In this document: positions 40,824-42,720 of the stretch, one piece after another
Layout: every line of letters begins with the position of its first letter
How positions within the stretch are numbered: the first letter of the stretch is position 1
Assembly: GCA_001938485.1 (NCBI GenBank)
Contig: MQRK01248235.1
Coordinates: 1-64,000, forward strand
Reading direction: 5' to 3'
Length of the DNA: 64,000 nt
From: Girardia tigrina
Taxonomy: Eukaryota
Made by a program: the position numbers and the translations under genes
The notes under the pieces: model-generated
What the model was told of the DNA's origin: nothing
The model's database searches: none
Seen by the model: only the letters and a program-made list of their open reading frames with translations

Positions 40824-41690
40824 TGTAATAATATTACTTATTACTTTTAAAATAGCAAAACTAAGACTTGTTATTAATTTGTTTTAATGTATCAATTGTA
40901 ATAAATAGACACAAAGCGGGAATTTGAATTATGATGGATACAGTGATCAGCCATCATGTCAATGTATTGCATAGTTAACATTTTATAGTATGTATCAATA
41001 TTATATATAACAAAAGTTGTTGTTTACAAGTTTATGAATAAAGACATGTATAACATGCTATTTTCAAACACAAGATTTTAAATGAAGATACAACAATATA
41101 TTTGAAACACAACTTACATAGTTGTAAACAAAATATAGTCAAAAACACGTGTAACAAAATCCTTATAGTTTAAATCTCTTAAAGCAGTGATTACAATTTT
41201 CCCAGAACCCAAAACATTTACACATATTGGATTGAAACAAGTTAATCTCAAAGAAGGAAACATTTCAGGTTCATAATGATTCGGAGTAGTCTTTTTCAAA
41301 GCATTGATATTTATGGGCTCACCATAATCACACGTCACTGTAATAGATTGTATACTGACATTGGTGATATTGAATGGTAAAGTGGATGCATAAATTGGTT
41401 GTTTACAACCCATTATTCAACATTTTCCATTGCGGAAGAATATGATGGTATAATCTGGAAAGTGTAAAACACCTTGGCACGGTTTAATACCAAAATGAAG
41501 GTCTTTCAGACAATCTTCAGTAAATCCTTTATAATTGATATTACGCAGCATTTGTTAAAAATGAATGTTACTGTATCCATCATAATTCAAATTCCCGCTT
41601 TGTGTCTATTTATTACAATTGATACATTAAAACAAATTAATAACAAGTCTTAGTTTTGCTATTTTAAAAGTAATAAGTAATATTATTACA
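40824..41690. repeat. Perfect 121-bp inverted repeats (40824-40944 and 41570-41690) enclosing the TBP-like gene
   Basis: Base-by-base comparison by eye found no mismatch between the arms. Confidence 0.92.
41114..41551 (-). pseudogene. TATA-binding-protein-like gene (145 codons, one in-frame TGA at 41417-41419)
   Basis: MLRNINYKG...TIIFFRNGKC*IMGCK...SIQSITVTCDYGEPININAL..YEPEMFPSL...PICVNVLGSGKIVITALRD aligns to both TBP repeats (TALIFSSGKMVCTGAK; IQNMVGSCD..PIRLEGL; YEPELFPGL; IFVSGKVVLTGAK). Confidence 0.82.
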
Positions 41691-41807
41691 ATAGTTTGTT
41701 TTGTTTTATTGCATCAAATAAAATAAATACAATAAACATTATGAGATATCGCAACATTCAGTCATTATTTCAAACTCCGTTTGACAAATCAAGTTGCTCC
41801 TACTGAA

Positions 41808-42581
41808 ATGAAGTGGAAGTTTAAAACCTTTGATAAACTTAACCAGGTAACTGAAGAAAAGAAAATTGATGATGAGGCAATTAATGGATCTAACCAATTA
41901 ACTGAAGAGATAAATGCTGATCAACCTAATCTAATCGAACCAGTTAGACCAGTAGGGAGGTCTAGACTAGTCAGACTTCCTAGGCTAGTTGGACAACCAA
42001 TAGTAGCAAAGGCTAGCCAGTCAACCAAGGATATCCAGGCACCAATTGATGAAGCCTTTGTTAGTTAGGATAACCAAACTAGTTATTTTCAACCAAAACA
42101 AAGAGATGCTCCACAAAAATCTTACTCACCATGGGTTTCTACATCAACAACATATAGAGGATATCAGATTAACTTGTTGAAATATCCGAAATCAATTAAA
42201 TTGAGGGATCCGGTATATGTTAGAAAGAGCAAATTTAGCTACCATGTAAAGGACATTAGTGATCGCAATTATGATCTTTTGAATATTGCCTTACAAGAAG
42301 TAGGAACAAGACCAGATTGGAAGCTGAGTGAACATAGAGAACAATATTTTCGATCAGATGATGGATTAAAATTTAGAGGTTTTATGGGTCATGAAATACC
42401 AGCAATGGACTTGTCTAATTATACTATGACATTTATCAAAATATGCATACAAGGTAGAAAAGAAAGAGATGGTAAAAATTATCCAATCTGGAAATTATCA
42501 GAAATTCGTTTGTATTTAATTGTTGATGCAAGTTGTATTGTTGCGTTAATAAATCTTGTTATATACGTCTCTTTGTTTTAA
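41808..42581 (+). pseudogene. Polinton accessory gene (about 257 codons, one in-frame TAG at 42066-42068); C-terminal domain possibly OB-fold/SSB-like
   Basis: ORFs 41781-42068 and 42174-42581 share a frame with only one stop between them. The C-terminal IKICIQG.....YPIWKLSEI weakly recalls viral SSB/DUF2738 beta-strands. Confidence 0.55.
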
Positions 42582-42720
42582 TGTATCAATTAAAATAAAT
42601 GTAATAAATGTTATGAGATATCGTGATATCAAGGTATTTTATCATTATTTCAAAATCCACTTACGAAAATAGTGAGTTTTTACTTGAGCTTCGCACATTT
42701 ATTAATTTGTATTTTCTTAG

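Follow-up and report, generated by a model that had tools for sequence, protein, structure and literature searches.

Gene content and limits of the element

The window, by which we mean the whole stretch of 64,000 nucleotides of Girardia tigrina DNA that was analysed (contig MQRK01248235.1), contains a Polinton element whose limits and coding parts are the following.

39843 to 48159, no strand assigned: Polinton element of 8.3 kb with three genes and the ends AGTAG...CTACT
39843 to 40809, plus strand: left terminal inverted repeat (TIR), 80-89% alike to the TIRs of virion-only elements
47078 to 48159, minus strand: right TIR, which contains an insertion
41114 to 41551, minus strand: TBP-like gene of 145 codons, with one in-frame stop in the window copy
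41808 to 42580, plus strand: ORF2, broken in the window copy; putative single-stranded DNA-binding protein, as a lead only
42548 to 42553, plus strand: AATAAA of ORF2, common to both element arrangements
42672 to 42720, plus strand: predicted GT-AG intron of 49 nt, directly behind the position of a start codon that is not intact in the window copy
42721 to 46660, plus strand: protein-primed DNA polymerase B with a Cys-rich N-terminus (PF03175, PF02945), broken by stops and frameshifts
40952 to 41080, minus strand, and 46690 to 46915, plus strand: shared 3' module of the TBP-like and polymerase genes

Polintons and Mavericks are defined by long TIRs with AG...CT ends and by a 6-bp target duplication. 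In the window element the TIRs are ~1 kb long, with a mutual identity of only 93% over the best 267 nt, the flanks CGTAAC and CATAAC form a 6-bp duplication that is 5/6 alike (6/6 in the sister element L241), and the protein-primed DNA polymerase B scored above the cutoff for PF03175. The element is like Polintons/Mavericks (adintoviruses) in these three respects and differs from them in that integrase and virion genes sit on sister elements. No integrase, ATPase, protease or capsid gene, all of which an autonomous Polinton has in the same element, was found in it, and neither an integrase nor virion genes were found in 20 long stretches of the window family. This family is present in high copy number in the 1.43-Gb genome; the best 40 of 2360 candidates were scored, and all genome searches refer to the best-scoring candidates only. 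The insertion in the right TIR (47264-47710) recurs at 16771-16886 of the window and at other loci. Elsewhere in the window there is another repeat, with two copies ~40 kb apart that are 83-98% alike (18530-22267 and 58443-63232), and there are two more elements bounded by inverted repeats (14760-15275 / 20969-21452 and 53897-54028 / 56599-56730).

What had been called a zinc-finger gene in the original prediction codes for the polymerase N-terminus: in sister copies its pieces fall together into single open frames, and they continue in frame into the PolB domains. A start codon stands directly before the splice donor at 10 of 12 sister sites and in 26 of 30 copies of a divergent polymerase family, from which we infer that the polymerase gene is spliced and hence transcribed by nuclear Pol II. 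RNA data consisted of 11 runs, available as contigs only (shares of at most 0.14), five of which were compared with the element; no spliced joint was found in the contigs of these five runs, and contigs that cross the motif and the intron unspliced are possibly derived from DNA. For ORF2 there was no Pfam match, and its predicted fold had a pLDDT of 35. Its homologue in the metagenomic locus L164 matched the Atlas clusters Pox_I3 and DUF2738 at 0.80-0.82, which is under 0.9, so that these are leads to single-stranded DNA binding only. Separately, viral contigs yielded one weak match of 27%, which was not used. Locus L175 was left out of the ORF2 alignment as unrelated, and row L372 of the alignment A3 was disregarded because its coordinates were wrong.

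A repeated cassette upstream of all three genes

The repeated sequences upstream of the genes, with the presumed core elements that follow them, are placed as follows.

41619 to 41635, minus strand: 17-mer motif upstream of the TBP-like gene
41701 to 41717, plus strand: 17-mer motif upstream of ORF2
42573 to 42589, plus strand: 17-mer motif upstream of the polymerase gene, 25 nt behind the AATAAA of ORF2
40824 to 40944, plus strand: perfect inverted duplicate (121 nt) of the TBP promoter at 41570-41690, private to the window copy
41557 to 41564, minus strand: initiator-like TCATTTTT before the TBP-like ATG, at a presumed start site
41586 to 41598, minus strand: GCGGGAATTTGAA, a putative E2F-like word adjoining a putative CHR-like TTTGAA (TTTGAA in 23/24 copies, GCGGGAA in 17/24)
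41762 to 41774, plus strand: TCATTATTTCAAA core before ORF2, initiator-like with a reverse CHR-like TTCAAA; the same core is found in family B and in metagenomic L164
42642 to 42654, plus strand: TCATTATTTCAAA core before the polymerase gene

The original prediction had placed the motif at three sites, and all three were recovered there (41635-41619 on the minus strand, 41701-41717 and 42573-42589 on the plus strand). It had also described the motif as belonging to accessory genes, which is wrong, since the motif heads all three genes of the element (TBP-like, ORF2 and DNA polymerase). The pattern TTGTTTTAWTGHATCAA has 4 matches in the window versus 0.00 expected from 100 shuffles, but it was written from these same sites, and the count thus shows repetition and not function; for TCATTWTTTCAAA there are 2 matches versus 0.20 expected. 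The modules at 41701 and 42573 are 77% identical over 87 nt and are therefore copies of one cassette instead of independent occurrences. A fourth motif copy (40879-40895, plus strand) lies within the 121-nt inverted duplicate and is present in 1 of 30 loci, which, together with the low mutual identity of the TIRs, marks it as a recent local duplication or an artefact of assembly. A sigma-70 scan, for which a bacterial model irrelevant to a eukaryote was used, gave 9 hits versus 7.8 expected.

Promoter sites were counted in 30 genomic loci. As had been proposed, a TCATT word lies near each start; in the TBP-like gene, whose ATG is at 41551, it stands 15 nt upstream, and ORF2 and the third gene likewise have it before the start. 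Among the sister copies, TCATT occurs in only 11 of 24 TBP sites, and ACATTTTT in 10. The distance from motif to core is nearly fixed, being 69 or 71 nt in 23/24 TBP sites and 69 nt in 22/28 ORF2 and 8/12 polymerase sites. The proposed absence of a canonical TATA box was borne out as well: between motif and start, TATAWAWR was found in 0/24 TBP, 1/28 ORF2 and 1/12 polymerase sites. The TBP-like gene and ORF2 are arranged head-to-head across a gap of 256 nt, most of which consists of two back-to-back modules, and no upstream gene ends there. A near-palindrome, GATATCG(C/T)GATATC, which we take to resemble DRE or GATA sites, is located within the polymerase promoter (42617-42630).

The core elements are similar to two kinds of animal promoter sequences. 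The Drosophila initiator is given as TCAGTY or TCATTCG in the available part of PMC1779564, and the TCA(T) core, which closely precedes the start codon, is comparable to it; the Polinton core is TCATWATTT, however, and the fly consensus may not be that of the host. Cell-cycle promoters with CDE/CHR elements are bound by DREAM/MuvB (PMC4176359, PMC3093354), with worm and fly relatives described in the latter, as stated in the accessible portions of these sources. The likeness to them consists of TTTGAA or TTCAAA near the presumed start, of tandem TTTGAA arrays in related promoters, and of an E2F-like GC word beside the hexamer in the TBP promoter. In contrast, the spacer after GGCGG is 3 nt instead of the 4 nt of CDE/CHR, so that a CDE proper was not found, and the 17-mer itself is no CHR. 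TTCAAA was present at 28/28 ORF2 and 9/12 polymerase sites and TTTGAA at 23/24 TBP sites relative to an inferred start, but the hexamer is a common one with 189 sites in the AT-rich window, and the match to CHR is therefore only a lead.

In related arrangements, the 17-mer is exchanged for another sequence while the core stays in place. For instance, in family B (17 loci, with a TBP ~70% identical to that of the window family) the gap contains (AATTTG)n and no 17-mer, and TCATTATTTCAAAA or a close variant is kept; metagenomic L164 also has an (AATTTG)n array in place of the 17-mer and retains the core. A constant association of the motif with the 5' end of the polymerase gene was contradicted by copies with an inverted polymerase, in which four promoters retain the core behind TTTGAA arrays. 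The 17-mer was missing in 16 loci of family B and in 23 metagenomic ones that have the same TBP-like gene, and in some metagenomic loci a short TTGTTTTA is found 38-39 nt before the core. In the divergent polymerase family, the 17-mer is kept in 27/30 copies, ~100 nt before the start, within flanks that align poorly; as a point against the model proposed below, its promoter has TCATT in 0/30 and TATAAAC in 18/28 copies. In metagenomic L164 (225-719, minus strand), a gene for a ubiquitin-conjugating enzyme (PF00179) is located behind a TCATTTTT core.

The fixed spacing of 69-71 nt, the conservation before the divergent polymerase gene and the exchange for TTTGAA arrays in place suggest that the 17-mer cassette is part of a promoter, a reading that we consider likely. 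The promoter class of the original prediction is thus retained as a shared TATA-less cassette, which is the best reading of the motif, while its restriction to accessory genes is dropped and the TBP-like protein is not favored as its reader. It is quite improbable that the repeats are functionless, having been carried from one gene border to another when the template was switched in the course of strand-displacement replication. Such an origin would agree with the many rearrangements that meet at the modules, with the fourth motif copy, which is a duplicate of this kind, and with the sharing of 3' modules (in sister copies, the TBP-like gene and the polymerase gene match at 70-90% in their 3' regions), but it would not account for a 17-mer that is conserved between families with poorly aligning flanks, nor for a spacing in the TBP promoter that is kept despite a differing spacer.

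The motif behind gene ends

The original prediction would have been overturned if transcripts ended instead of starting at the motifs, which were said to contain AATAAA and to be possible terminators. The observations go part of the way toward this, in that sister elements also have the module after their final gene, in association with AATAAA. In virion-only elements, it is located 25-32 nt behind the AATAAA that follows the last gene, with only the TIR beyond. An 11-mer of the motif is present at this position in 27 of 30 loci, one of them from a linked family (see below). A polyadenylation signal is commonly completed by a downstream element, a U/GU-rich word shortly behind AATAAA, and such a word is present after the exonuclease gene and after ORF2; it was not found in this relation to AATAAA at the head-to-head modules or in the divergent family.

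The module might accordingly be a 3'-end or boundary signal, made up of a U-rich word, TGTA and AATAAA, that stops read-through, in which case the promoters would be the TCATT cores with TTTGAA/TTCAAA only. We regard this as unlikely, if more plausible than template switching. It would explain why the 11-mer stands 25-32 nt behind AATAAA in 24 virion-only loci and is followed by a second AATAAA and the TIR, why the module takes the same position behind ORF2 in the window and is found once behind a TBP gene (1/58), and why the short TTGTTTTA comes after an AATAAA-like word in some distant loci. On the other hand, the two copies in the head-to-head gap point outward in a place free of gene ends, the motif is missing at the end of ORF2 in 14/29 copies, and the motif of the divergent family has no AATAAA of its own (absent in 28/28) and is ~90 nt away from the upstream signal. 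Furthermore, the ATCA half of the motif is altered in 16/27 of the positions behind a last gene, where no gene follows, and is kept at almost all promoter positions; this agrees with a relic, or with the U-rich half acting in 3' processing. We therefore keep to the promoter reading as the probable one, with the addition that in tandem gene arrangements the U-rich half may double as a 3'-processing element.

The TBP-like protein and the YATAAAC box

Three sister copies of the TBP-like protein matched Pfam PF00352 (E 7e-14 to 2e-13), and the predicted model has a TBP fold with two repeats (pLDDT 89; Foldseek E 1e-8, TM 0.75). The family is wide, with 39 clusters at E<=1e-30, and also occurs in complete Polintons. 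Residue roles follow in part the accessible part of 10.1101/2025.08.25.672222 and in part the general picture of TBP bound to TATA. Of the four intercalating phenylalanines of TBP, three are present: among 42 TBP-like proteins, Pro replaces the first bending Phe in 41, and the other three Phe are kept in 41-42. On the face toward the DNA, a Leu is changed to Asn and an Asn to Ser in all 42, both stirrup Glu are kept in 40-41, and helix H2 is missing.

The sequence YATAAAC, a box other than the 17-mer, was associated with a different set of genes. In 17 metagenomic loci, it was found within 90 nt of the start of 20/34 integrase and virion-module genes versus 1/18 TBP/ORF2 genes (background 3.6%), and several of the genes that lack it have the box at ~100 nt; the TCA-type core showed the reverse distribution, with 1/34 versus 13/18 (background 6.7%). 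These counts exclude seven rows that lacked a usable start, as well as two genes that could not be classified. The p-values of 2e-4 and 2e-7 are optimistic, because the loci are related and the two motif classes were chosen by eye from the very data that were then counted. In the sister element L225, 11 YATAAAC sites are on the coding strand and 0 on the other, versus 2.6 expected. No YATAAAC was found before the genes of the window element. Among the genes of the relatives, Pfam confirmed the A32 ATPase, the rve integrase and the C5 protease; the putative major capsid gene had no Pfam or PDB match, and the labels capsid, exonuclease and PY/PZ-like are putative ones that we presume from gene position and known motifs.

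The original prediction saw in the motif a natural target of the TBP-like protein, which, acting on the TATA-less module, would drive the three genes of its own element. This has little probability, no more than template switching has. It would explain why the TBP of the window family is under purifying selection (0.32) though no gene there is headed by YATAAAC, and the motif read on its opposite strand, TAAAACAA, is similar to TATAAACA. However, the motif is ~70 nt from the core, and thus from the presumed start, instead of ~30, and the family-B and metagenomic loci mentioned above have the same TBP-like gene and not the 17-mer; canonical TATA boxes are present in 7/18 TBP/ORF2 genes of the relatives, and it is the virion module that YATAAAC tracks. 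Since this other box marks the integrase and virion-module genes, the assignment of the motif to the TBP-like protein is probably wrong, and the sequence patterns make YATAAAC a strong candidate for its target, the most confidently held of the functional assignments made here.

Two element families with matching ends

The sister elements with the opposite gene content are listed below.

L225 (G000:C223974:9435-18479), L226-L242 and L265-L294: virion-plus-integrase elements without polymerase or TBP gene

These elements carry the virion module and the integrase only, between TIRs of the window type (80-89% alike, as above). Both TIRs are present in L225, which is ~9 kb long, and target duplications flank the elements (6/6 in L241, 5/6 in L225). 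A TIR follows directly behind the last virion-module gene in 28/30 loci, and 14/20 ATPase loci have a TIR just upstream, with ORF2 in 1/20. Conversely, none of 30 loci at the polymerase end had an ATPase, integrase, capsid, protease or exonuclease gene. The two families thus have shared termini and complementary gene sets, as the segments of a bipartite genome do. Pairwise dN/dS in the window family was 0.32 for TBP (44 copies), 0.24 for the polymerase (37) and 0.52 for ORF2 (30), and selection was weaker in the virion family (ATPase 0.65, 20 copies; putative capsid 0.55, 17 copies); dS to family B was 0.68 and 0.51. That TBP is under purifying selection in a family without the late box argues for its action in trans.

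A strict model with two parts only failed, because a linked family also exists in the genome. The TBP/ORF2 genes stand beside the ATPase gene in L243, L244 and L205, and an exonuclease gene is found upstream of the polymerase in 22/30 loci; this family was seen on short contigs and not whole. Both halves could therefore lean on the linked family instead of on each other. With this taken into account, the balance tips slightly toward a true two-part system, the mutual dependence of whose parts the dN/dS values support.

Several other arrangements were seen. In a divergent linked family (L290, L354-L382), the exonuclease gene is followed by the 17-mer and by a polymerase gene in which the start comes directly before the intron and a long Q/E-rich tract lies in the N-terminal region. 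In four loci (L298, L302, L309 and L318), a divergent polymerase gene terminates head-on toward a TIR and the first small virion-module genes. Behind ORF2 in L013-L015, L018-L025 and L027-L029, there is a remnant of a small virion-module gene that stands behind TATATAAAAT and not TATAAAC; this remnant testifies to the deletion by which the polymerase-only family arose.

Bidnaviruses have a bipartite genome, a PolB and matching segment termini (PMC8502044), and are viruses with single-stranded DNA (PMC4061559), according to the available parts of these sources. The elements described here resemble them in having two DNA molecules with matching ends, one of which encodes the polymerase, and differ in that the window-type elements are integrated double-stranded DNA and coexist with a linked family.

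Proposed mechanism and comparison with herpesviruses

On balance, we favor with some reservation a model in which the motif forms the upstream portion of an early promoter used by host Pol II, and in which the TBP-like protein acts in trans on TATAAAC(A/G) of sister elements. In all three genes of the window element, the 17-mer is followed after ~70 nt by a TCATT-type core and the start codon. A host factor would bind the 17-mer, with initiation at the core, and TTTGAA arrays would take the same job elsewhere, possibly via the MuvB/DREAM complex. The TBP-like protein, which combines a predicted TBP fold and the acidic stirrup with three of the four bending phenylalanines and with fixed polar substitutions on the DNA face, would then recognise YATAAAC ~35-45 nt before the start codons of late genes. 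As the polymerase and TBP genes are on one TIR-bounded family and the integrase and virion genes on another, the families could complement each other, with early genes on one switching on late genes on the other; the window family would need the integrase and virion proteins of the sister elements.

A comparable division of labor is known from beta- and gamma-herpesviruses, in which late transcription depends on the TBP mimic ORF24 and on TATTWAA promoters (10.1101/2025.08.25.672222; PMC6541308), as described in the accessible portions of both. According to the same part of the former, ORF24 keeps four phenylalanines and lacks the acidic residues that bind TFIIB; it makes direct contact with Pol II and requires five partners. 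The Polinton protein is similar in being a virus-encoded type of TBP fold with polar for hydrophobic residues on the DNA face, and the modified TATA box on structural genes next to host-like early promoters is a likeness as well, here in sequence pattern only. It is unlike ORF24 in its length of 145 amino acids, in having three phenylalanines and no helix H2, in retaining the acidic stirrup and in being encoded on another element than its likely targets. A Pol II-binding domain of the herpesvirus type and a six-protein complex were not found, the 145-aa protein consisting of the TBP fold only. The likeness we suggest is one of working principle, not of membership.

In the adintovirus work, a TBP-like gene is named only in a figure legend within the available text (PMC8502044, 10.1101/697771), the accessible main text of the preprint does not contain the word promoter (10.1101/697771), and the available parts of 10.1101/2025.02.07.637071 and PMC11071308 mention no TBP. 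An early/late split of Polinton promoters was not found in the literature searched, although supplements, Repbase and subscription journals may hold annotations; TATAAAC did not occur in the 20 papers covered out of 258, and a search for it together with Hoogsteen and TBP likewise returned nothing.

More tentatively, at somewhat less than an even chance, the animal Polinton might be split into an early segment with the polymerase, a putative single-stranded DNA-binding protein and a mini-TBP, and a late segment with the integrase and the virion module. The mini-TBP would be a one-protein switch acting in trans, and the whole would be akin to a bipartite DNA virus genome divided by promoter class, in which one host-read cassette heads the genes of the early segment and TATAAAC heads nearly every gene of the late one. 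The parts of this arrangement are short and defined, namely a 17-mer cassette, a TATAAAC box and a TBP of 145 amino acids with fixed changes on its DNA face, and each of the two promoter classes coincides with a separate element family. The finding bears on the question of a viral early/late programme in animal Polintons and of particle formation by them.
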